Assembly (NCBI GenBank): GCA_964581995.1
Contig: CAZOQB010000003.1
Span: 41,989-105,988 of the forward strand
DNA length: 64,000 bases
Reading direction: 5' to 3'
Source of the DNA: an uncultured Ignavibacteriaceae bacterium
GTDB lineage: Bacteria; Bacteroidota; Ignavibacteria; UBA10030; BY39
Shown here piece by piece: positions 24,272-51,668 of this stretch. Position 1 is the stretch's first letter, and each line of letters begins with the position of its first letter. The notes beneath the pieces were generated by a model. The model saw nothing but the letters and a program-made list of their open reading frames with translations, did no database searches and was not told where the DNA came from. The position numbers and the translations under genes are program-made.

Positions 24272-25000
24272 ATGAAAACCATAACATCATTCATTCTAAT
24301 TTTTTTATTTAGTGTAATTCTTCAGGCACAAGATGCGAATGTTTTACTAAAAACAGTCGATGAAAATCTGATGCCTGATTCGTACGAAGCAATACGCAAA
24401 ATTATTAATGAAGAACCCAATGGTTCAAAGAAGGAATACACCTTTTACACTATAAAAAAAGGGAAAGATAAAATTGCGATGCTGTACATTACACCGGCGA
24501 GTGAGAAGGGACGCGCTACGCTGCGTTTGGGCGATAATATGTGGTTATACGTTCCCAATGTAAACAAACCAGTCCGTATCACAAGCTTGCAATCGGTTAT
24601 TGGCGGTGTGTTTAACAATGCCGATCTTATGCAGTTGGAGTATGCTGTCGAGTACAACGCTTCGTATGCTGAAGGAACTGAGAAAGAGTATATCCTCGAC
24701 TTGAAAGCAAAGAACAAAACTGTTGCTTACGACAGATTGAAGATGTGGATTAGTAAAGACAAAAAAAATCTCCTCAAAGTTGAGGCATACTCAGCATCCA
24801 ACATGTTGATTAAGACACTCGAATTTAAAGAGGACAAAAATTTTGGCGGCGGACTAATTCGTTCATCAGTTATTGAAACATCCAGCCCGCTCTATAAAGG
24901 TTATCGCTCGTTGATGGTGTACCAAAAAATCAAAAAACGACAGTTCCCTGATGAGGTGTTTACGCTGAGTTACATGGGTCGTTTAGGAGACCTCCGGTGA
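24272..25000 (+). CDS. Outer-membrane lipoprotein-sorting (LolA-like) protein
   Basis: Signal peptide. Sequence pattern typical of LolA-like proteins next to LolDE-like ABC transporters. Confidence 0.65.
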   Translation: MKTITSFILIFLFSVILQAQDANVLLKTVDENLMPDSYEAIRKIINEEPNGSKKEYTFYTIKKGKDKIAMLYITPASEKGRATLRLGDNMWLYVPNVNKPVRITSLQSVIGGVFNNADLMQLEYAVEYNASYAEGTEKEYILDLKAKNKTVAYDRLKMWISKDKKNLLKVEAYSASNMLIKTLEFKEDKNFGGGLIRSSVIETSSPLYKGYRSLMVYQKIKKRQFPDEVFTLSYMGRLGDLR

Positions 25001-26256
25001 AGTTCTGGTTCCTTTATTTTCTAATGGTTCCTCTGCTTGCGTTTTCACAAGAAGAATTCGATTCATCTACAAACGAGAAAAAATTAGAATGGAGCGGCAA
25101 TCTTGATGTAAAGTATTCTCTTTTACAGATGTCTCAGACTTCACCGGCATATCGACTTCAATTCTATAGTTCGAAGGATATATCGCGTTATCTATCGCAG
25201 TATCGAATCGAGCCGTATCTGAATGCCGAATATAAATCGGGGAGTTTAGGGTTTTTTATGAAAACCCACGCAACATATTTTAGCGATGATGAAGCGAGTG
25301 TCGATTTGTTCGAGGCATACGCAAGATACAATCCTTCGTTGAGCGCTACTATGCAACTTGGTAAAAGCGTGTTTAGCTGGGGAAAGGGATATGCCTTCAA
25401 TCCGGTAGGGTATGTAAATCCGCTGAAGGATCCTGAGAACCCGGAACTTGCTCAGGCGGGAATTCTTTCGGCAAATGTTGAGTATATAAAAAGTTTTTCA
25501 TCGGGTGCGCTTCAATCCTTTGCAGCCCAGGCGATAATAATCCCGGAAAGCAATCCTATAAACGGTCGTTTCGGTGAAGCAAAATACACAGATGTTGCGG
25601 CGAAGCTTTATTTTCTATTTTTGGATACCGATATTGATTTAATGATTTACCAGGGCAGCCGGAATCCTAAGCGATATGGGTTTGATGTTTCGAAGAACAT
25701 AATGGAAAATTTAGAATTCCACACCGAATTCGGTTTGACACGAAACGCTGACAGATATTTCATTGGCGATGGAGTTTTAAGCCGAGAGCATGGCGATATT
25801 TACAGTTATCTTTTCGGAATAAGATATCTTAACGAGTGGAATACGACCGTGATTGCAGAATACTATCGCAACGGGTTTGGTCTGAGTGAAACAGAATACG
25901 AATCGTATAATAAATATCTTTTGAACGGTCTTACTGTTGGAACACCTGATGCTATTCAACAAACAGTTGGCATTAGTCAGGCATATTTCAAGAGCAGCAC
26001 ATTAATGCGCGATTATCTCTATGTAAAAATAACTCAGCCGGAACCTTTTGAATTGCTTTATTTTACCCCATCAATTTACACTATTTACAATCTGCAAGAC
26101 AACAGTTTTTTGCTCTCAACAAACTTGACCTATAAACCTGAAACGAATCTTGAATTTATTGTTTGGTACACATCTATGTTTGGCAAAGAGGCGAGTGAAT
26201 TCGGATCACGTCAGGTCGAGCAAAAAATTGAGTTGTGGATGCGAGCGTATTTTTAA
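24997..26256 (+). CDS. Outer-membrane beta-barrel protein, hypothetical
   Basis: Signal peptide. Porin-like alternating pattern. Terminal YF. Confidence 0.5.
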   Translation: MKFWFLYFLMVPLLAFSQEEFDSSTNEKKLEWSGNLDVKYSLLQMSQTSPAYRLQFYSSKDISRYLSQYRIEPYLNAEYKSGSLGFFMKTHATYFSDDEASVDLFEAYARYNPSLSATMQLGKSVFSWGKGYAFNPVGYVNPLKDPENPELAQAGILSANVEYIKSFSSGALQSFAAQAIIIPESNPINGRFGEAKYTDVAAKLYFLFLDTDIDLMIYQGSRNPKRYGFDVSKNIMENLEFHTEFGLTRNADRYFIGDGVLSREHGDIYSYLFGIRYLNEWNTTVIAEYYRNGFGLSETEYESYNKYLLNGLTVGTPDAIQQTVGISQAYFKSSTLMRDYLYVKITQPEPFELLYFTPSIYTIYNLQDNSFLLSTNLTYKPETNLEFIVWYTSMFGKEASEFGSRQVEQKIELWMRAYF

Positions 26257-26822
26257 GAAAAATCGATTGAAGCGACGTTAGAAGATAATCTAAGAGATTT
26301 AGCTGATAAATATCGAATGACATCGATTGATATTGTGAAGATAGTAGTTCCGGATGAGGATTAGCAAAATCGGTACTGATATAATTCGATATTTTTACTT
26401 GCCTAAACTCAACCATTTATTTATGACCGGCGAGGGTATAGCAAAACCTGAAGCATACAATCTATATAATTCAAGAGATATTTGAAGTTGGAATTATTAA
26501 ATGATATATTATAATCAACGTGCGGCTCCGTGAAAATACTTACACGAAGGAATTTCGTGTAACTTCGTGAAATAAAAATAGATGGCTTGGTGTTAAGAGC
26601 CCGCCTGTCTACCGATAGGTAGATTCGACTGAAGCAAGCAGGATGATAGATATGCAACTGCACGCATATCTATGTTCCAGAAGATATATAGCCGTTCAGG
26701 CTTGCCCGACAATTTTTGTGGCGGGATAATTAATAGGTAGCCCTATTTCAGGGTGCATAGTGTTTTTTAATATGTTTTCGATTATATTTTTGAAGGCATT
26801 TAGAACAAAATAAAGTAAAAAT

Positions 26823-27110
26823 ATGAGTAAAGAATTATCCAAAAAGATTGCAGACTGTTTCAAGAATAAGCCTGTAAAAAAGGCATTTTTATTTGGCTCG
26901 GTGTCGCGAAACGAAGAAGATGATCAAAGTGACGTAGATATCTTAGTCGAATTAGATTACTCACAACCAATCGGTCTTGGTTTTGTAAGAATGAAATTAG
27001 AATTAGAAGACATGTTAAAAAGGAAAGTTGATATTCTTACAAGTAATAGTGTTTCAAAGTATATTCAACCATTTATTGATTCAGAAAAAATATTGATATA
27101 TGAGAAATAG
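26823..27110 (+). CDS. mntA: MntA-type nucleotidyltransferase (antitoxin of a HepT/MntA pair)
   Basis: GSVSRNEEDDQSDVDILV minimal nucleotidyltransferase motif. 95 aa. Confidence 0.85.
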   Translation: MSKELSKKIADCFKNKPVKKAFLFGSVSRNEEDDQSDVDILVELDYSQPIGLGFVRMKLELEDMLKRKVDILTSNSVSKYIQPFIDSEKILIYEK

Positions 27111-27444
27111 TTTAGGCGATAAGGCGCGATTACAACATATTTATGATGCTATTCTCGAAATCGAATCATATATTCAAAAATCACGTTATGAAGTTTTCCA
27201 ATCTAATACGATGATGCAATTTGCTTGTGTAAAACAATTGGAAATTATTGGTGAAGCAGCAAATCATCTCACCCCTCATTTCAAGAAACTCTATTCAGAA
27301 ATACAATGGCGAGAAATAATAGGTCTTAGGAATATATTAATCCACGAATATTTTGGAATTGATACAAAAATTGTGTGGGATATAATTACAACCGATATTG
27401 TTTCATTAAAGTCACAAGTCAAAGAAATTATAGAACAATTATAA
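27100..27444 (+). CDS. hepT: HepT-type HEPN toxin (DUF86)
   Basis: Rx4HxY motif (RNILIHEY). 114 aa. Overlaps mntA by 11 nt. Confidence 0.85.
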   Translation: MRNSLGDKARLQHIYDAILEIESYIQKSRYEVFQSNTMMQFACVKQLEIIGEAANHLTPHFKKLYSEIQWREIIGLRNILIHEYFGIDTKIVWDIITTDIVSLKSQVKEIIEQL

Positions 27445-27594
27445 CAAGGTCTTACCCGTCGCTCAACACGGACAGCCCCGCGGAGCGGGTTAAACTGCTT
27501 TCGCATTTGGCATTCCCTACTACGCAAAAACGCTTCAGCGGGCAAGCTGGGGTGCCGCTTATCGACAACGCCGTTATACCAAAAAGGAAAACTA

Positions 27595-28191
27595 ATGAAA
27601 CTTTATTCCTATGTAGTTGAACATGATAATGGATTTGCGCCAAATCCATATTTTAATGTCTGCTCTTTAGCGCATTGTAAATTTGGTAAAAAAAGAAAAA
27701 ATATCGTAGAAATGGCAAATGTTGACGATTGGATTATTGGTACTGGAGGTAGTAGTTCCAGAAGTGCTGGAAAAGGAAAATTAGTATATGCTATGCGTGT
27801 AGATGAGAAGTTGAGTCTGAAAGAATATTATAAAGATAAAAGGTTCAATTCAAAGAAACCAAATAATAGTAGTTTTGAAAATAGTAGGGGTGATAATAAA
27901 TCTAAATTCAAAAATGATATACAAAGATTTGTGCTATTATCATCTCATTATTATTATTTTGGTAATAAAGCGGTAAAAATTCCAACCCGATTTAGAAACC
28001 ACAAAACTTGTGCTCTTGAAAAAAAAGGTCCCGGCTATAAATCTTCCTTTGATGAAAAGTATATCTTAAATTTTGTTTTTTGGTTAGAGAAAAATTACTC
28101 TATTGGTATTATTGGTGTACCTTGTAATCTTGAAACAGAAGAAATGTATTTTACTGATAAGCTAAAAAAGAAAAATGGAGTTTGCAAATGA
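27595..28191 (+). CDS. Uncharacterised protein, first gene of an AT-rich cassette
   Basis: 198 aa. N-terminal motif YSYVVEHDNGFAPNPYFNVCSLAHC. Lys-rich. No family recognisable by eye. Confidence 0.6.
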   Translation: MKLYSYVVEHDNGFAPNPYFNVCSLAHCKFGKKRKNIVEMANVDDWIIGTGGSSSRSAGKGKLVYAMRVDEKLSLKEYYKDKRFNSKKPNNSSFENSRGDNKSKFKNDIQRFVLLSSHYYYFGNKAVKIPTRFRNHKTCALEKKGPGYKSSFDEKYILNFVFWLEKNYSIGIIGVPCNLETEEMYFTDKLKKKNGVCK

Positions 28192-28949
28192 AAGCACTTT
28201 TATTACGTGTTGGAATTGATAATGGCTATGGAGCTGTTACACCAATATTTGCTGATGATACTTATGAGTATATTTCTATCTATTATAAAAACAAAGTATC
28301 AATAGAAAAGAACGAAAAAAGAACATACAAAGATATTAAGTGCAAATATAGAGATAATGGCTTAGAGTTAAGAAATTTACAAGGATTTACAAATATTGCT
28401 TCATACCTTCCTAAAAAGCTCCATGATAAAATTATTCATCTTGACCCAGAATTTGAATCATTTACTTATGGTGAACCAGGCCGTCAAAAAAGGGCGGCTT
28501 TATTGAAATTGGAAAAAGGTGATTTATTAGTTTTTTATTTAGGAGGCAAGAATTGGGATGATAAAACGGACAGTGAATTAGGCGTTTATATCTTCAGTTA
28601 TTTTACAGTTAAAGAAGTTTATGATTGGAACAATTTAAGCAAAAAAGAACAAAAAGAACTATCAATAAATCAACTCTCTAAAAACGCTCATATAATAAGT
28701 TCAAAACCAAGAACAAACTTAGTTATAGTTAAAGGTGAATCTTCTAAAAGCAAAAAACTAAAATATTGTATTAAGATATCGGAACCCAATCAGAAAAGTA
28801 ATAATCCTTGTTATATTGCATCAAAGGAAATAAGAAAGTTACTTGGTATTAGGGAGTTTATTACACGTGCAGTTCCTATTTGGATTATGAATAAAAAATA
28901 TTTGCAGAATTTGCAAAGTTTACTACTATTAAAAACAATAAGTTTATAG
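28188..28949 (+). CDS. Uncharacterised protein, second gene of the cassette
   Basis: ATGA overlap with the upstream gene implies translational coupling. N-terminal LLLRVGIDNGYGAVTPIF motif. About 254 aa. Confidence 0.6.
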   Translation: MKALLLRVGIDNGYGAVTPIFADDTYEYISIYYKNKVSIEKNEKRTYKDIKCKYRDNGLELRNLQGFTNIASYLPKKLHDKIIHLDPEFESFTYGEPGRQKRAALLKLEKGDLLVFYLGGKNWDDKTDSELGVYIFSYFTVKEVYDWNNLSKKEQKELSINQLSKNAHIISSKPRTNLVIVKGESSKSKKLKYCIKISEPNQKSNNPCYIASKEIRKLLGIREFITRAVPIWIMNKKYLQNLQSLLLLKTISL

Positions 28950-29128
28950 AAAAATCCAATAATTATAATAGAATGCTTAAAATAACATAGAATTGCATAA
29001 CAAGCGGTTAAACTTAACCGCAGTTTTCAGAGTAGCAAGTTAGGCGCAACGCCGTTAGACCACATGAATTAACTATCGCATAGCTACACAAGTTAGCGGA
29101 AATCAAAATAAACAGGAGACAAAATATC

Positions 29129-30058
29129 ATGCAAACAATTTTGGGAGCAAACGGAACAATTGGCTCTGTATTAGCAAAGGAGTTAACGGCTTACACAAAT
29201 CAAATAAGATTAGTCAGTCGCAATCCAAAGAAAGTAAATGAAACAGACGAATTGTTCCCAGCCGATTTGTCGGATGCAAGTCAGGTAGAAAAAGCTATTG
29301 TGGGTTCTGAAGTTGTATATCTATTAGTGGGATTTGATTACAACATAAAAGTATGGCGAGATAACTGGCCCAAACTCATGCGTGCCACAATAGACGCTTG
29401 TATTAAGCACAAAGCGAAATTAGTATTTTTTGATAATGTCTATATGTATGATATTAATGCTATCCCGCACATGACTGATAATTCATTCATAAACCCGCCA
29501 AGTAAAAAGGGGGCAGTTAGAAAAGAAATTGCCGACATGCTTTTAAATGAAGTAAAATCCGGGAAATTGACTGCACTAATTGCCCGCTCTGCTGATTTTT
29601 ATGGTCCTAATAACGATAAAAGTTTCTTAATTGAAGTGGTTTACAAAAATATAAAAAAAGGCAAGAAGCCCAATTGGTTCATTGATGCAAATAAAAAACA
29701 TTCCTTTACTTATACACCCGATGCAGCCAAAGCTACCGCACTATTGGGAAACACTGTTGACGCATACAACCAAGTGTGGCATTTACCCACCGATAAAAAC
29801 ACCTTAACAGGTAAAGAAATGATAGCATTGTTTGCCAAAGAAATGAATGTAGAAAACAAGGTTTCTATATTGCCGATGTGGTTATTGAAAATACTCGGTC
29901 TCTTCATTCCAATAATGAAAGAGATGCCTGAGATGATGTATCAATACGATAGGGATTATTATTTTGACTCAAGCAAATTTGATAAACGATTTAACTTTAA
30001 AGCTACAACTTATCAGGAGGGTGTAAAACTGACAGTTGAGCAAACAAAAAATAAATGA
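29129..30058 (+). CDS. NAD(P)-binding SDR/NmrA-like epimerase-dehydratase family protein
   Basis: N-terminal GANGTIGS Rossmann motif. 309 aa. Confidence 0.8.
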   Translation: MQTILGANGTIGSVLAKELTAYTNQIRLVSRNPKKVNETDELFPADLSDASQVEKAIVGSEVVYLLVGFDYNIKVWRDNWPKLMRATIDACIKHKAKLVFFDNVYMYDINAIPHMTDNSFINPPSKKGAVRKEIADMLLNEVKSGKLTALIARSADFYGPNNDKSFLIEVVYKNIKKGKKPNWFIDANKKHSFTYTPDAAKATALLGNTVDAYNQVWHLPTDKNTLTGKEMIALFAKEMNVENKVSILPMWLLKILGLFIPIMKEMPEMMYQYDRDYYFDSSKFDKRFNFKATTYQEGVKLTVEQTKNK

Positions 30059-30596
30059 TGGAAGCAGATCAACCACGAATACATATTGGCAGTGGTTCAG
30101 TGGATAATTAAATATTCTATCGTGTGTCTTCTAACAAGTGCCTCATACAAAAGGCATCTTCCGAAGGAATCACTTTGTGACCTTCGGGACTAAAATTAGG
30201 AGGGGGGACGTTTGCCTCCATGTCTATAAGAGTAGAGAAGTCGACTATCGAGTCGCAGACTCGTAGAGGGGATGAGTCCGAAACAAGTTTGCACTTGATT
30301 TGAGCTTTTTATAATATTTGCAGTGTATATTTTATGAATGCAAGCGATTGTATCACCGAGAAGTGTATCATAAATTGGAACATAATTTTAGTCATCAACT
30401 CGCTTGATAATATCCTATAGTGATGTGAATGATAACCCGTTGAAAGAATATAAAATACAATGAAAACAAAAAAACATACTAAATCTAACACACACGCTGC
30501 CTGCGTGTTAGACGGATTATATGGCAGTATAATTAATAGTTCGGCGGCAGAGCATATGTCGGCATTTGAAACGATAATTTGATAAGGAAATATACT

Positions 30597-31475
30597 ATGA
30601 AAAAAGTATCCAGTATTCCTATTATTTTGTCCATCTTGATTGCAACATTGGCAATAATCGTTGCTGGATTAGGGGTCTTTTGGCAAGGCGGAGGACAAAA
30701 ATCTGAATTTCTCACTCTGCGTGGTGAAACAGTAACGATACAAGGACATGGACTGTATCAACATGAAACGCTCTCTACCGCGGCGCAGGCAATAGCCCAA
30801 GATGTCGTTACTCTGCTGGTGGGGATTCCGCTATTAGTTATATCCATGATTTTGTTCAAAAAAGGAAGTTTGCAGGGTAAGTTGCTTCTATCGGGAACAT
30901 TAGCATATTTTCTATATACGTATGCGTCTTTTGCTTTTGGTGCGGCATACAACATCTTGTTTCTGGTATATGTGAGTTTATTCTCGCTTAGCCTATTCGC
31001 TTTCATCTTTGCGCTCATGGAAATAGATATTCCAACTTTGCCAAAGCATTTTTCGTCAGGTTTGCCTCATCGCACAATCGCTATATTCTTATTCGTTGTG
31101 GGGAGTTTCTTGTTATTAGCCTGGTTGGGGCGCATCGTACCAGCACTATTAGCAAATCAGCCGCCACTTGGATTGGACGCGTACACAACCCTAATTATTC
31201 AAGCATTAGATTTAGGGTTGGTTATGCCAATAGCCTTTCTGTCAGGTATCTTGCTCTGGAAGAAAAGCGCATGGGGCTATCTGCTTTCTTCAATTGTTCT
31301 AATTAAGGGAGTCACTTTAGCACTTGCAGTATCAGCAATGGCGGTAAACATGATTTTAGCGGGAGTGCAAGTCAGCACTGGTGAGTTAATAATGTTTCCA
31401 TTCATTGCCATAGTTAGCGGCGGGTTGACAGTTATACTTCTGAGAAATGTTACTGAGTTAGGAGACAAGAATTGA
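30597..31475 (+). CDS. Polytopic membrane protein, hypothetical
   Basis: Eight or more hydrophobic helices. Start taken at MKKVSS. Confidence 0.5.
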   Translation: MKKVSSIPIILSILIATLAIIVAGLGVFWQGGGQKSEFLTLRGETVTIQGHGLYQHETLSTAAQAIAQDVVTLLVGIPLLVISMILFKKGSLQGKLLLSGTLAYFLYTYASFAFGAAYNILFLVYVSLFSLSLFAFIFALMEIDIPTLPKHFSSGLPHRTIAIFLFVVGSFLLLAWLGRIVPALLANQPPLGLDAYTTLIIQALDLGLVMPIAFLSGILLWKKSAWGYLLSSIVLIKGVTLALAVSAMAVNMILAGVQVSTGELIMFPFIAIVSGGLTVILLRNVTELGDKN

Positions 31476-41318: not shown

Positions 41319-42464
41319 ATGGGCCTACTTAAATTTATAGTTTCTATAATTGTTCTTGCTGTTATTGCATACTATACTTATCAAAGCACTTTTAATAGGA
41401 TAGATATCGAGACACTTATCATCGCGGAGAAAAGTGGGGGTATAGCTGCGGTCATTCCAGATGGGAAGATAATAAAAGAGGAATCGGCGGATTCACTTTT
41501 CGCAATGTTGGGATATGTCAAGTCAGACAGCTTTGTTGTTCAAGCCGGAAAAGGTACTGGCGATTCGATTGTTGGTACTATAGTTATACTCTTTGGGAGT
41601 ATTGTCGTTTCCTGGAGTATTTTTTCGATAATAGATTACTTGTTCAGTATAGCTCCTTTGCGTCTTCAATGGAGGAGCAAGTTTTTTCGATGGACACATC
41701 GATGGCTGGGAAAATATGGATTAAGTCGTACAGACAGCACAGACAGTGAGTTACGAGAAAACTATTATGAACTTCTTCGGCTACTTTCATCTGGGTTCGC
41801 TAGTGAATATGAAAATGTCAATATCCGCTTAAGCTATAATGGGACAGTATCAGATCTTCAAGAGAGATGCGAAGCAAGTTTAAACGTTGATAAGTTAACA
41901 CTACCCGTAGGTAAAGGGAAATTGGTTGAATTATTGGAATATTGGGAGAAACTTGTTGTCGCAAATAAGGCAATCGTATCCCGTGTTTTTGTTTCGCCAC
42001 CGTGGATTTACTTGTATAACTCAGTAAAGGATAAGAATTCACTCTCTTGGTACTCTTCTGTAAATAAAAACATAAAAACCTGTTGGACGCACACAGGGAA
42101 AGAAAATGTGGAGAGGGAAATAAAGAATCTCAAACCAGATCTAGATTTTGCACTTTTTGAAGGAGATCGCAATGTAGGAGGCATGAAAGAACGGGGTAGG
42201 ATTTGTGTGGGGTATATTAAGGGAAGTCTTGTTTATACCTTCCAGACCAATGATGAATGTTTACTAGACAAAAGGCCTACTTATCTCAACACTTTGTGGG
42301 CTACTGGACAAGACCACAACGCGACGATTGCGGAAATTAATAGTCATTCAAAGCTCTCATGGCGGATTCGTTCTAAAATCATGAGTTACTGTTCAAATTT
42401 TAGTAAAAATATTTTTTCCTTCAAGAAACAATTTCCAATTTCATCAACTACAGTTCCCAAATAA
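41319..42464 (+). CDS. Membrane-anchored hypothetical protein (two N-terminal TM helices plus a ~250-aa soluble domain)
   Basis: Hydrophobic segments at residues ~5-22 and ~85-112. No recognisable family. Confidence 0.5.
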   Translation: MGLLKFIVSIIVLAVIAYYTYQSTFNRIDIETLIIAEKSGGIAAVIPDGKIIKEESADSLFAMLGYVKSDSFVVQAGKGTGDSIVGTIVILFGSIVVSWSIFSIIDYLFSIAPLRLQWRSKFFRWTHRWLGKYGLSRTDSTDSELRENYYELLRLLSSGFASEYENVNIRLSYNGTVSDLQERCEASLNVDKLTLPVGKGKLVELLEYWEKLVVANKAIVSRVFVSPPWIYLYNSVKDKNSLSWYSSVNKNIKTCWTHTGKENVEREIKNLKPDLDFALFEGDRNVGGMKERGRICVGYIKGSLVYTFQTNDECLLDKRPTYLNTLWATGQDHNATIAEINSHSKLSWRIRSKIMSYCSNFSKNIFSFKKQFPISSTTVPK

Positions 42465-42499
42465 TGCATAGGAAAGAATTGTGAATAGTTGTTTTTCAA

Positions 42500-43963
42500 T
42501 TGATATTACAGTATATGAAACCTAAAAAATACTCCATTCTCTCAACAATCAGCGATCCGCAGCGATACGATTTGATGTTAGAATCATGTTATGTCTTATT
42601 ACGATGTGATGAATGGGATTTTATTGAAACTGATGAAAATGGTATACCTTCATCTTCAACTTCATGGATCCATAGTATACAATCTGCATTGATGATGTTC
42701 GGACTTGATGTTACATCGTATCCACAAGGAAGTGTTTCTGCTAATAGAAATTACTATGAAGCATTACGAAATTATTTTGACGGCAAATTCCCTGATAACG
42801 GCGATACAAACCTATTAAGAGAGAGATTAAGAAATTTTCTTCGTCTCAGACGAGATGATTCAGGTACAAGTAATACTGATCTTTATGGGTCATATTTCAG
42901 CACTGATAAAACACACAGTTCACGGGATGTAACTAATTTTAGAAAAATCGAAACAAGCTTGAGACATAGTGCAGCTGCATTATGGATTTTAGTCGAAGAA
43001 TCTCTTGGTAACTTCCGAAAGGATATCTCAGATTCTCTTGATTCTTTTTTTCTACATATCAAGGAGTATTTATCAGCTTCAGATATTTGGAAAAGAGACA
43101 AATTCAAACAACTGACGATCTCCAACACATATAATTTGTGCAAATCTATCTTAAAATATTCAGAAGATAATAAATTTAGAAAAAATGCCTCTTCTGTAAT
43201 TCTAAAATGTAAAAAAGCTATTTGGTCTGAGGACTGTTTAAGACAAGGAGATGATGGTGAATATAGTTGGATATATCCCCAAATTAGTAAGAGTAAATTA
43301 GCAATTTATGAATACTACCTCAATTCTTATTGTCTTGCGCAGATGCCTGAATTGTTAAATGATAAAAGAGCACAGTCTATTGTACGTGGTATGCTAAAAA
43401 ATAGAATTAATTCACTTGTAGGTTTTGGCATTCCTCTCCATCCGTTGATAATATACAATTCTCAGGATAATATTAAACCTGATTTCGGTGCTACTGCCTC
43501 AGTACTTTATTTTCTGTGGTACTCAATTGAGAATGAAGTTGGTGGCCGTAAATGGATTGAATATTGTAAAACAAATTTTGATTGGGTCTTACAGTTTTGT
43601 TTAAAAGCATATGAAAAAAAAGAATATTACATTCTTCCAATATTAGAAAACAGTTCAAAAATATTACTTATGCCAAGGATGAAATTTGATCCTATACGTG
43701 AAGAAGAAATCAATAAGTATATCGAAGAACTAAAAAAGAATGCAATATATCCTGAGATGAAAACACATGAAGGAAAACTTCATAAATCAATGAAAAACAT
43801 ACAATCACCAACTGGTTTAGAATGTGTTAAGGAAATAATCGGAACATGGAATCTCACTGAACATTGGGGTTCACAAAAACGCTGGAAATTTAATTTTAAA
43901 ATTAATTCTGGGAAACTAGGTGAATTTGTTGGTGGTATTTTAAAAGCATATAGTACACCATGA
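42500..43963 (+). CDS. Large hypothetical protein (487 aa), helical, Cys/Trp-rich
   Basis: No recognisable motifs. Shares AT-rich composition with the radical SAM genes. Confidence 0.5.
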   Translation: MILQYMKPKKYSILSTISDPQRYDLMLESCYVLLRCDEWDFIETDENGIPSSSTSWIHSIQSALMMFGLDVTSYPQGSVSANRNYYEALRNYFDGKFPDNGDTNLLRERLRNFLRLRRDDSGTSNTDLYGSYFSTDKTHSSRDVTNFRKIETSLRHSAAALWILVEESLGNFRKDISDSLDSFFLHIKEYLSASDIWKRDKFKQLTISNTYNLCKSILKYSEDNKFRKNASSVILKCKKAIWSEDCLRQGDDGEYSWIYPQISKSKLAIYEYYLNSYCLAQMPELLNDKRAQSIVRGMLKNRINSLVGFGIPLHPLIIYNSQDNIKPDFGATASVLYFLWYSIENEVGGRKWIEYCKTNFDWVLQFCLKAYEKKEYYILPILENSSKILLMPRMKFDPIREEEINKYIEELKKNAIYPEMKTHEGKLHKSMKNIQSPTGLECVKEIIGTWNLTEHWGSQKRWKFNFKINSGKLGEFVGGILKAYSTP

Positions 43964-43964
43964 T

Positions 43965-44240
43965 ATGATTAATCAGTTGCTGATAAATGGTTTAATTTCT
44001 GGAGCGATTTATTCTCTCGTGGCTCTTGGCTTTGCCCTCATTTACCAAACAACCCGTGGCGAAGCCACTCCTTTGGAGCTTCTTCTCCCGCTTTACAGCG
44101 GGACAGGCACTTCCCAAAGGGACAAGTCGCTCACGGGGCTGTTTATACATTTGGCGCTTACACTTCGACGGATTTTACCCCGACGAAAGTAGGGGCTCAG
44201 CGCATGATTTGCTTATCTGTTTTACACACAACTAGAATCT
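43965..44240 (+). pseudogene. Degraded duplicate of the 5' end of livH
   Basis: MINQLLINGLISGAIYSLVALGFALIYQTTRG.. versus LivH MIEQLILNGIIAGSIYSLVAIGFALIYQTTRFF... The nucleotide match resumes at gctcacggggctgtttatacatttggcgcttac and cttatctgttttacacaca. Two GC-rich insertions break the frame. Confidence 0.7.
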
Positions 44241-49744: not shown

Positions 49745-49870
49745 TGTTTTCCATACAACCCAAACAATAGCCAGCCAAACTACTGAGCGGATGCTCATCG
49801 CTTCTACACTATGCAAAGCAACTGCTCCATTCGAAAAATAAATTACTCCAACAAGTCCCATATTGTTATT
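49745..49870 (-). pseudogene. Diverged remnant of a paralog of the 51279..51668 gene
   Basis: About 70% identity to 51300..51420, with an internal deletion. Confidence 0.45.
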
Positions 49871-50489
49871 AACGATAAATTGCTACTCCAAATCCAACTT
49901 CTATTATTTCACTTAAAGGGATCGTTGAGTTTCCAAACATACTTGCTATGTATAATCCTCTGCTTCCCACACGAACGTAAAACGCTGTTCCGGAGGCGGG
50001 AGTTTTATCGCTTAATAGCTTTGTTTTTATTTCTCCACCAATGAATATTCCTACGTTTCTTCCCGGCGACCACCAGTAATATTCATCAGGATAATGTGAT
50101 GGTAAACTTATCCAGTATTCAGTACCAAATGTATGATGAATAAAAAAACCGATGTTTAATGGTAATAATTCTATGTTTTCATAAACTTTAAATTGAAAAA
50201 ATTTTGCTGTTAATTGTAAACTAACACTATGTAAGTCGTCGATAGAAATAAATTTCGGTACATATCCGTAAAAAAAAGAGACATCCAATCTGTGCTTAAA
50301 AAAGCTGTACCCCACTCCCACAGATAAAAATCCTATACCTCCGGCAAATTGTAATTTCACATAATCAGGCAAAAACTTTTTATACTTTGCAGAATCAGTG
50401 TTTTGAGAAACCTGACTGTAAGCATCAAATCGACTGCAAAGCAGAAAAAAAGTGATAATCAATACTATTTTAAAATTCGTATGTTTCAA
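49869..50489 (-). CDS. Small outer-membrane beta-barrel protein, hypothetical
   Basis: Signal peptide. Aromatic-rich strands. Confidence 0.45.
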   Translation of the reverse strand: MKHTNFKIVLIITFFLLCSRFDAYSQVSQNTDSAKYKKFLPDYVKLQFAGGIGFLSVGVGYSFFKHRLDVSFFYGYVPKFISIDDLHSVSLQLTAKFFQFKVYENIELLPLNIGFFIHHTFGTEYWISLPSHYPDEYYWWSPGRNVGIFIGGEIKTKLLSDKTPASGTAFYVRVGSRGLYIASMFGNSTIPLSEIIEVGFGVAIYR

Positions 50490-51282
50490 TTTCGAATTGA
50501 TTATTAGTTATTTTAATAATGTTAAATTTTCTGTGCTCTACACCATACACATTTATATAGCTGATACTGTCGTTATAAGGCTTATATATTTCATGATGAT
50601 GCAAGTGGCCATGTGTTGCAAATAAAACATTATTGTAGCGTGCTAATGTGTTATGAAAAGCTTGTTCTAATGACGAATTAAAATCTCCATCCATTGGCGG
50701 GACATGAAAAATAACAACCGCATTAGTAAAATTATCGTTTGGTTGTAATTGTGCGTCCAGCCAATTAATGTCCGGCACATTTCCACTAAACTTAAATTCA
50801 CGACTATTTGTGTTTACAAATACAAATTTTACACTATCATAAATAAAACTAAAATTAAAAGCGCCGAACATTTCTTTATATGCAGTACTGCCATTCCCGA
50901 CTAAATCGTGATTACCAACTACAACAAAATACGGCGATGTCAATTTTAAAAGTAAAGAGTTTGCCCATTCATATTGTTTCGGCAAACCAAAATCAGTTAT
51001 ATCGCCAACATGTATAACAAAATCAACTGAAGGTTTCTTATTTACTTCGTTTACAAATTCTTTTGTTTCATCATAAAAACGATGAGTATCGCCGGTTAAT
51101 GCTATTATTATTGTATCGTCTGTATTTTGATTAACTAATTTATCGATGTTTTTCTGATTGACATTTTTGTCTTCCTCACTAAGATCAATTACATAAGGAC
51201 TATAATCGAACATATCTTCACATCCTGTTAATGTGAACACCCCTAAAAAAAACAAAAGTATTTTAATTAAATAATGTTTCAT
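50470..51282 (-). CDS. Metallophosphoesterase (calcineurin-like) lipoprotein
   Basis: Motifs GDTHRF, VIHVGDITDFG, GNHD, HGHLHH. Lipobox TLTGC. Confidence 0.85.
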   Translation of the reverse strand: MKHYLIKILLFFLGVFTLTGCEDMFDYSPYVIDLSEEDKNVNQKNIDKLVNQNTDDTIIIALTGDTHRFYDETKEFVNEVNKKPSVDFVIHVGDITDFGLPKQYEWANSLLLKLTSPYFVVVGNHDLVGNGSTAYKEMFGAFNFSFIYDSVKFVFVNTNSREFKFSGNVPDINWLDAQLQPNDNFTNAVVIFHVPPMDGDFNSSLEQAFHNTLARYNNVLFATHGHLHHHEIYKPYNDSISYINVYGVEHRKFNIIKITNNQFEIETYEF

Positions 51283-51668
51283 CCGACATCTGTAAAAGGT
51301 TTTTTCGACATCCATGTAAACCAAACAATGACCGACCAAATTATTGAGCGCAAACCCATAGCATGTACGCTGTGTAATGCAACAACGCCACCCAAAATAT
51401 GCATCATGCTGACGAGAGCCAATACAATCAGGTGCATTGATGTAACTATGACCGCGAGCTTTAACGCCCTCTGCCGGTTAAGCCACAACATCACTCCAAC
51501 AATTACTCCAACAACTCCCATGACTACGTTGTAGATGAGCAATGGAGTCAGCACGATGTAATCCGGTTGAGTTATACCCAACAACACCTGAAATCCCTCT
51601 ATGGTCGAAAGTAAACTGAAGATAACTGCAATACCAGCCGCTATTTTTCCAAACAATATTTTTTTCAT
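51279..51668 (-). CDS. Small four-helix membrane protein (DoxX-like), intact member of a repeated gene family
   Basis: 129 aa, four TM helices. The 3' third is repeated at 34672..34828 and 49745..49870. Confidence 0.6.
   Translation of the reverse strand: MKKILFGKIAAGIAVIFSLLSTIEGFQVLLGITQPDYIVLTPLLIYNVVMGVVGVIVGVMLWLNRQRALKLAVIVTSMHLIVLALVSMMHILGGVVALHSVHAMGLRSIIWSVIVWFTWMSKKPFTDVG

Follow-up and report, generated by a model that had tools for sequence, protein, structure and literature searches.

An Nmad2-Nmad3 operon in an Ignavibacteriaceae genome as a candidate sensor-plus-enzyme module for modified nucleotides

A stretch of 64,000 nucleotides from an uncultured Ignavibacteriaceae bacterium (GenBank assembly GCA_964581995.1, contig CAZOQB010000003.1, positions 41,989 to 105,988 of the forward strand; referred to here as the window and numbered from its first letter) contains at positions 27595 to 28949 a two-gene cassette which had been annotated from sequence as being of unknown function. 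We found this cassette to be an intact, probably horizontally acquired operon which encodes one member each of the protein families Nmad2 and Nmad3, and both proteins are predicted to adopt PUA-like barrels of the EVE/YTH/ASCH kind, a reader-type fold. Tentatively, and with slightly less than even confidence, we read the cassette as a mobile, self-contained module for the recognition of modified nucleotides, in which Nmad2 would be the sensor and Nmad3 the enzyme and which would act in genetic conflict. Nmad2 and Nmad3 were already known as named families, and their only experimental link was the presence of Nmad2 in the weakly protective five-gene defense system DS-4. To this we add the predicted folds, mutual fusions of the two proteins in both orders, the recurrent wiring of Nmad2 to TIR, SIR2 and nuclease effectors, and an apparently catalytic, partner-swapping Nmad3. 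The label of unknown function can in this way be replaced with a testable sensor-plus-enzyme hypothesis with named residues and, if a defense role proves true, a small nuclease-free module would join the systems that sense modified nucleotides.

The first gene (27595..28191, + strand) begins with ATG and encodes the 198 aa Nmad2-family protein, the proposed sensor or reader subunit, while the second gene (28188..28949, + strand) encodes the Nmad3-family protein, the proposed catalytic subunit. Both open reading frames (ORFs) are intact on the forward strand. The second frame was listed by ORF calling as 28182..28949 (+ strand), and its true start was set at the ATG at 28188 because the homologues all share the N-terminus MKALLLRVGID, which gives a protein of 253 aa. 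The ATGA overlap described in the initial annotation was confirmed and is made up of the Nmad3 ATG (28188-28190) and the Nmad2 stop codon TGA (28189-28191). Together with a GGAG motif located 7 nt upstream (28177-28180) it forms a candidate translational-coupling junction (28177..28191, + strand), and overlaps of 4 or 19 nt between Nmad2 and Nmad3 genes recur at other loci. The AT- and lysine-rich composition noted earlier was also confirmed: with a GC content of 0.288 the cassette is the lowest 1355-nt stretch within the window (mean 0.398, standard deviation 0.042), the GC content at third codon positions is 0.19-0.20 versus 0.34-0.43 for the flanking genes, and lysine accounts for 14.6% (Nmad2) and 13.4% (Nmad3) of residues versus 5-11% in the neighboring proteins.

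The first protein was matched to Pfam PF18753 (Nmad2) with 147.4 bits versus a cutoff of 26.1 (E 5.1e-43) and the second to Pfam PF18754 (Nmad3) with 73.4 bits versus a cutoff of 27 (E 2.9e-20). Both proteins are full-length members above the gathering scores, with no defining difference from the families, and the Nmad-type assignment which had earlier been offered tentatively is borne out by these matches. Neither protein falls in a characterized metabolic family, and NCBIfam gave nothing significant for either of them. Homologue collection yielded 326 Nmad2 proteins, all of which are PF18753 members, and 660 Nmad3 proteins, and the members of both families are mostly metagenomic. The Nmad2 profile recovered 2,252 cluster representatives among 1.84 billion, and Nmad2 is therefore a small family. 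The window Nmad3 falls on a divergent branch of Ignavibacteria/Bacteroidota type, scoring 73 bits to the Pfam model versus 250-270 for other members, and it ends at 253 aa without the approximately 80-aa C-terminal extension of its closest relatives. In many close relatives (L084:3627-4619; P0122, P0130, P0143, P0152) this extension has no Pfam match. In the literature searched we found neither a main-text use of the names Nmad2 and Nmad3 nor any published biochemistry for either family.

The conserved-looking N-terminal motifs picked out in the initial annotation, YSYVVEHDNGFAPNPYFNVCSLAHC and LLLRVGIDNGYGAVTPIF, are present in the cassette proteins and proved to be the best-conserved blocks of the respective families. 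For Nmad2, the conserved residues form a largely aromatic, loop and cysteine core (Y6, D11, G-x-APNP, C23, C28, K29, D45, W46), and the core residues Y6, D11, G13, P16, N17, P18, C23, C28, K29, D45 and W46 are all present in the window protein, as is the extended core motif S-Y-x-x-x-x-D-x-G-x-A-P-N-P ... C-x-x-x-x-C-K ... D-W-x-x-G-T-G-G ... Y-A-M ... Y-F-G. Every residue conserved in at least 85% of 174 diverse members is found in the window Nmad2, except for a serine in place of threonine at position 24. For Nmad3, the residues conserved in at least 92% of 167 diverse members were R7, D11, H84, D86, P87, E88, Y94, D112, N166, H168 and S188, with H84, D86 and P87 conserved in 100% and H168 in 99% of these. 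The window Nmad3 carries R7, G9, D11, H84, D86, P87, E88, T93, Y94, G95, D112, F116, Y117, N166 and H168 and contains the core motifs LLRVGID, H-x-D-P-E-F-x-x-x-T-Y-G, GDLLVFY and N-A-H. The invariant polar set within Nmad3 (R7, D11, H84, D86, P87, E88, D112, N166, H168) reads as a putative catalytic or metal site.

AlphaFold2 models were obtained with a predicted local distance difference test (pLDDT) score of 88.7 for Nmad2 and 90.5 for Nmad3, and both proteins were modeled as PUA-like barrels, which in Nmad3 would hold the invariant polar constellation. On structure comparison of the models, the top 17-20 or so matches of each protein all belonged to the PUA-like superfamily (EVE/YTH/ASCH). 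The Nmad2 model matched YTH domains (scores of 7.0-7.6), the EVE protein PH1033 (6.8), VcaM4I (6.6), ASCH (6.0), McrB-N (5.9) and THYN1 (5.3), while the Nmad3 model matched PH1033 (8.3), VcaM4I (8.3), ZmASCH (7.5), YTHDC1 (7.0), THYN1 (6.9) and McrB-N (6.6). Foldseek, which had been suggested as a check, returned the same top matches for Nmad3 with weak E-values. No sequence-profile likeness to EVE, YTH, SRA, ASCH or PUA was found for either protein in Pfam (E up to 1), and no solved structure in the PDB was detectable via sequence or profile. EVE/YTH/ASCH-type domains read modified bases such as N6-methyladenine (m6A), 5-methylcytosine and 5-hydroxymethylcytosine, with the base flipped into a pocket, and some ASCH proteins are hydrolases. 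The possibility that Nmad2 and Nmad3 are diverged paralogues was rejected (hhalign probability 0.1%).

To describe how the two families occur together we used two samples. The Nmad2-anchored sample consisted of 80 loci from species-representative genomes (Acidobacteriota, Planctomycetota, Verrucomicrobiota, Proteobacteria and others), and an adjacent Nmad3 was present in 39 of these, usually downstream and overlapping and occasionally upstream (L030, L076). The Nmad3-anchored sample consisted of 67 metagenomic loci with room upstream and was biased toward window-like sequences; here a separate Nmad2 lay beside Nmad3 in 9 of 67 loci. Fusions of the two proteins were found in the order Nmad3-Nmad2 in 3/67 Nmad3-anchored loci (L112, L124, L128) and in the opposite order in 1/80 Nmad2-anchored loci (L054). 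Since fusions exist in both orders, there is strong evidence that Nmad2 and Nmad3, where they occur together, also function together. The association is genuine but optional, and the co-conservation on which the earlier proposal of a two-gene system depended was found only in part. Reversed gene order was also seen in the closest Nmad2 relatives on long contigs (L174:4317-6645 and L175:1865-4487), in which Nmad3 precedes Nmad2 and an HNH endonuclease gene lies next to the pair, overlapping it upstream in L174 and divergent in L175.

A different translationally coupled gene was found upstream of Nmad3 in 11/67 Nmad3-anchored loci. The encoded proteins, which we refer to as family X, are unnamed, measure approximately 190-240 aa (L085:7351-8001, L092:7273-8004, L126:7366-8004, L168:5429-6004, L170:5133-5726, L172:5376-5978 and others) and share the motif GRxQYFxHxPxSxLPIRD...KTEPHIE...AENY...YLFLxTxC...RFIVGYIxK with a cysteine-rich C-terminus. 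Family X had no Pfam or PDB match and was never seen beside Nmad2, and the idea that it might be a divergent form of Nmad2 was rejected (hhalign probability 3%). Within Ignavibacteria/Bacteroidota, the closest relatives of the window Nmad3 are paired with family X, not with Nmad2.

Away from Nmad3, Nmad2 occurs in immune architectures, and SIR2, TIR and 5-hydroxymethyldeoxyuridine (5-hmdU) kinase-like (HMUDK) genes recur nearby. In Psychroserpens luteus (L071, 9504-12084) a ThsB-type TIR gene is followed by Nmad2 and then by a SIR2-STALD gene (ThsA-like, SIR2-SLOG), a second locus carries TIR-Nmad2-MazG_C (L081, 9516-11772) and a third Nmad2-GmrSD (L017). Nmad2 is also fused within single proteins, with a pair of TIR domains in P0361 and with a restriction-endonuclease-like NOV_C domain in P0341. 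The loci L071 and L081, and also L069:9504-10630, have a Thoeris-like arrangement with an inserted Nmad2, and DS-4 shares the overlapping TIR-Nmad2 genes. An unexpected partner was seen in metagenome-assembled genomes of Helicobacteraceae (L047:754-1482, L067:5407-6147), where the gene for a penicillin-binding transpeptidase-domain protein of approximately 245 aa overlaps the 3' end of Nmad2.

The pair relatives within the window clade clearly sit in accessory settings. Close relatives of the window pair were found beside a PIN toxin-antitoxin pair, DUF2225, a KAP NTPase and a COOH-NH2 ligase (L084), beside an HNH nuclease and conjugation genes (L175), and beside a DUF433/DUF5615 toxin-antitoxin pair, a resolvase and IS91 (L178), while in L174 a type I S subunit, an AAA_15/21 ATPase and HNH_2 precede Nmad3-Nmad2 and IS200/605. 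Both families are cellular rather than phage-borne and are essentially absent from phages: there was no tblastn match to either in 50,697 phage records, and only 2 loci for each family were found among 2.9 million viral contigs. A phage origin, or a part in a phage hypermodification pathway, was rejected on these counts.

On the reading that we favor, Nmad2 and Nmad3 would form a complex which recognizes a modified nucleotide, be it free or part of a DNA or RNA strand. Nmad2 would be the reader or sensor subunit, a role suggested by other genomes in which Nmad2 is wired to ThsB-type TIR, SIR2-SLOG, NOV_C and GmrSD. Nmad3 would be the enzymatic subunit in the effector position, as suggested by its invariant H-x-D-P-E and N-x-H residues and by its ability to stand alone, and it would probably hydrolyze or otherwise process the recognized nucleotide or nucleic acid. 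The module would then most likely act against foreign nucleic acids in phage or plasmid defense, much as a modification-dependent type IV-like system would if it were split and had no nuclease. A role in conflict or defense is favored because of the low GC content, the variable insertion sites and the mobile-element and defense neighbors of the window clade. We also considered a bolder and rather unlikely version, in which the pair would be a minimal, self-sufficient immune module of an undescribed kind. In a complex of the two unrelated PUA-like proteins, Nmad2 would sense a phage- or damage-derived modified nucleotide, and Nmad3, a new PUA-like catalytic class (H-x-D-P-E / N-x-H), would degrade or alter the nucleotide or nucleic acid so recognized; Nmad3 would here be a swappable core which is paired with Nmad2, paired with family X or left alone.

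The cassette was compared with several known systems. DS-4 ('NTTI') is an Escherichia coli defense system validated in DefensePredictor (Science 2026, PMC13092281), and its five genes encode thymidylate-synthase-like, deoxynucleoside monophosphate kinase-like and 5-hmdU-DNA-kinase-like proteins, a ThsB-type TIR protein and Nmad2. The DS-4 Nmad2 (WP_047174762.1) shares 35% identity with its window counterpart (E 3e-28). Type IV enzymes combine a reader with a nuclease (the EVE-HNH protein VcaM4I; the YTH-like N-domain of Thermococcus McrB), and the likeness to these extends to the HNH nucleases adjoining relatives of the window pair and to the one Nmad2 fused elsewhere to NOV_C. However, the window cassette has two different reader-like proteins where the known enzymes have one, and no nuclease domain was found in its proteins or in the genes adjoining it; among the related loci, only L174 and L175 have an HNH gene next to the pair. 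The closest architectural precedent is provided by GNAT-EVE operons with an additional gene for an ASCH protein, likewise PUA-like (Bell et al. 2020, PMC7641849), so that two distinct PUA-like proteins lie together in toxin-antitoxin or defense-type contexts. These operons carry a GNAT acetyltransferase, often with PIN or AAA+ components, and bona fide EVE and ASCH domains, whereas the window cassette has none of these.

PUA-like domains can also sense or hydrolyze free modified nucleotides or nucleosides, beyond the bases of a polymer. The PUA-Cal-HAD system is reported to be triggered by N6-methyl-dAMP (m6-dAMP; bioRxiv 10.64898/2026.01.15.699771), and the ASCH hydrolases YqfB and EOLA1 act on N4-acetylcytidine. 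YqfB/ASCH structures were among the weaker structural neighbors of the window models, but the cassette is without a calcineurin or HAD effector and shares no catalytic residues in sequence with these proteins, and the likeness to PUA-Cal-HAD, YqfB and EOLA1 is mechanistic only, by analogy. Since the defining components are missing, the cassette does not count as DS-4, as a type IV restriction system or as any PADLOC system, and it resembles them only through reader-type PUA-like modules.

The proposal in the initial annotation of a candidate small defense or modification system is made plausible by DS-4, the effector couplings, the folds and the neighbors, although this support is circumstantial only, and we have to admit that a number of observations weigh against a defense module. 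Neither protein had a match in PADLOC-DB v2.0.0 (E up to 1), a database in which the neighboring MntA matches PDC-S09. No effector domain (nuclease, TIR, NADase or pore) is recognizable in the cassette or adjacent to it in the window. Context and conservation, not an assay, are the grounds on which Nmad2 is cast as sensor and Nmad3 as enzyme. DS-4 is the only experimental evidence for defense and has a different architecture: it has no Nmad3, the window has only Nmad2 of its five genes, and its recorded effect for lambda was approximately 1 log with small plaques. In a census of 139 neighbors at 22 pair loci, in which high-GC genomes were scanned with crude ORF calling, we were not able to identify a recurrent third gene, and the neighbors comprised 4 integrases, few defense matches and many housekeeping genes. 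Acidobacterial pairs lie among housekeeping genes, in the strings uvrA-yjeF-tsaE-Nmad2-Nmad3-SDR (SDR, short-chain dehydrogenase/reductase) and ApbE-Nmad2-Nmad3, and Nmad3 was monocistronic in 44/67 loci, often in conserved housekeeping synteny.

Several of these observations are what would be expected from the serious rival to a defense role, namely a housekeeping or salvage pair in which Nmad3, with Nmad2 as its specificity partner, would process modified nucleosides, nucleotides, RNA or DNA arising from turnover. We regard this as possible, although on the unlikely side. The model for such a function would be the ASCH-type PUA-like hydrolases that deacetylate N4-acetylcytidine, and ASCH enzymes are indeed among the structural neighbors, while the strong conservation of polar residues would suggest catalysis. 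Besides the acidobacterial strings, some of the solitary Nmad3 genes share a conserved synteny with genes for MsrA, a thioesterase, a HAD protein or TspO, and in Ignavibacteria/Bacteroidota relatives the X-Nmad3 pair is flanked either by alaS and the gene for a sugar nucleotidyltransferase or by scpA/scpB and the gene for a pseudouridine synthase. Such a role is less easily reconciled with the patchy distribution and small size of the Nmad2 family, with a GC content atypical for the window, and with the ties of the window clade to mobile elements, toxin-antitoxin and restriction-modification genes and HNH nucleases. The repeated coupling or fusion of Nmad2 to TIR, SIR2 and nuclease domains, and its membership in the validated DS-4, also argue against it. 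Should this rival be true, the pair would represent a new enzyme of modified-nucleotide metabolism.

An improbable alternative is that the pair acts as a modification writer which installs or elaborates a modified base in host DNA or RNA, for example as a self-mark. The Pfam family names ('nucleotide modification associated') and the NCBI label on some members ('Nmad3 family putative nucleotide modification protein') would suggest such a function, and Nmad2 occurs together with genes for 5-hmdU DNA-kinase-like, thymidylate-synthase-like and MazG_C proteins. However, neither protein has a group-donor-binding domain (S-adenosylmethionine, ATP-grasp, glycosyltransferase or aminotransferase) and the families are missing from phages, the home of hypermodification pathways, which makes a writer function less likely. 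There are also no hypermodification genes in the window cassette, and PUA-like folds typically belong to readers and hydrolases, not to transferases.

Directly upstream of the cassette lie an MntA-type nucleotidyltransferase gene (26823..27110; Polbeta match, E 1.8e-14) and then a HepT gene (27100..27444; E 1e-27), and downstream lies an SDR-superfamily Epimerase/NmrA gene (29129..30058). At greater distance the window carries housekeeping genes (an FtsX/MacB permease, a LolA-like protein, COX1). These positions of the toxin-antitoxin pair and of the SDR gene agree with the initial annotation, but the structured region of about 570 bp which was said to precede the cassette does not: this intergenic region (26257-26822, 566 nt) sits upstream of MntA, away from the cassette. 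The same gene order, including MntA/HepT, was found in independent assemblies of the same organism (L001-L003, the window's own sequence), and in the second strain L002 it is kept while the non-coding DNA has diverged, with region 26257-26822 approximately 80% identical and Nmad2 100% identical.

That the cassette is an appendage of MntA/HepT in a four-gene unit, or is itself a toxin-antitoxin-like addiction pair, is very improbable: the two lie side by side on the same strand with a shared low GC content, the arrangement is kept in L002 and other pairs also adjoin toxin-antitoxin modules (PIN, DUF433/DUF5615), but a functional tie is unlikely because only the window's own sequence shows MntA/HepT adjacency among the sampled Nmad2-Nmad3 loci, a 150-nt GC-rich spacer separates HepT from the cassette, and proteins of 198 and 253 aa with reader-type folds are unlike the known type II toxin-antitoxin pairs. 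The toxin-antitoxin neighbors elsewhere belong to other families, and co-localization in islands therefore fits better than a single unit. An SDR-superfamily gene follows the pair both in the window and in L176:6540-9140, a 2.9-Mb contig of acidobacterial type on which the pair lies between tsaE (tRNA t6A modification) and a short-chain dehydrogenase gene, and this may be a coincidence.

The region 26257-26822 was more stably folded than 100/100 shuffles (z -2.81) and contains several hairpins. The spacer between the AT-rich HepT and Nmad2 genes (27445-27594) has a GC content of 0.54, and its folding was not above that of shuffles (z +1.15). A known RNA element in the non-coding DNA flanking the cassette, region 26257-26822 included, was rejected, since no Rfam match passed the gathering threshold and none was found with E up to 1 either. 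A sigma-70-like promoter match (TTGATA-16-TATAAT, 11/12; 27359..27386, + strand) lies within the 3' end of HepT, approximately 210 nt upstream of Nmad2; it is a match to the consensus only, and the sigma-70 type may not be that of the host. Transcription of the cassette by read-through from the MntA/HepT operon is equally possible as transcription from this promoter. Downstream, a GC-rich hairpin GCGGTTAA-ac-TTAACCGC (29004..29021) begins 55 nt past the Nmad3 stop codon, is followed by AGTTTT and may be the cassette terminator; the terminator scan flagged it on the minus strand only, and as a consensus match alone it is no evidence of function.

The cassette is exactly bracketed by the two copies of a 16-nt direct repeat, CAACGCCGTTA[T/G]ACCA, with the left copy CAACGCCGTTATACCA at 27566..27581 and the right copy CAACGCCGTTAGACCA at 29047..29062 (both + strand). 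The resemblance of this repeat to an insertion scar is suggestive but of uncertain significance, as the within-window BLAST E-value was approximately 0.3, which is not significant by itself, and the window holds only these two sites. The idea of an integron cassette with attC sites, which came from this repeat and from GTTRRRY-like ends, was rejected on the grounds that the spacers are unstructured (z +1.15 and -1.20), that the repeat is insignificant and absent elsewhere in the window, and that the lone downstream hairpin is terminator-like.

Several other ORFs in the window had no Pfam match. Just upstream of the islet is an ORF of 419 aa (24997-26256), and downstream of the SDR gene is a membrane-protein-like ORF of 298 aa (30579-31475). 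Two further patches of low GC content (approximately 0.32) were noted, one at 41319-44192 with such ORFs of 381, 487 and 75 aa, and the other at 49869-51339, where an unmatched ORF of 206 aa lies beside a calcineurin-like metallophosphoesterase.

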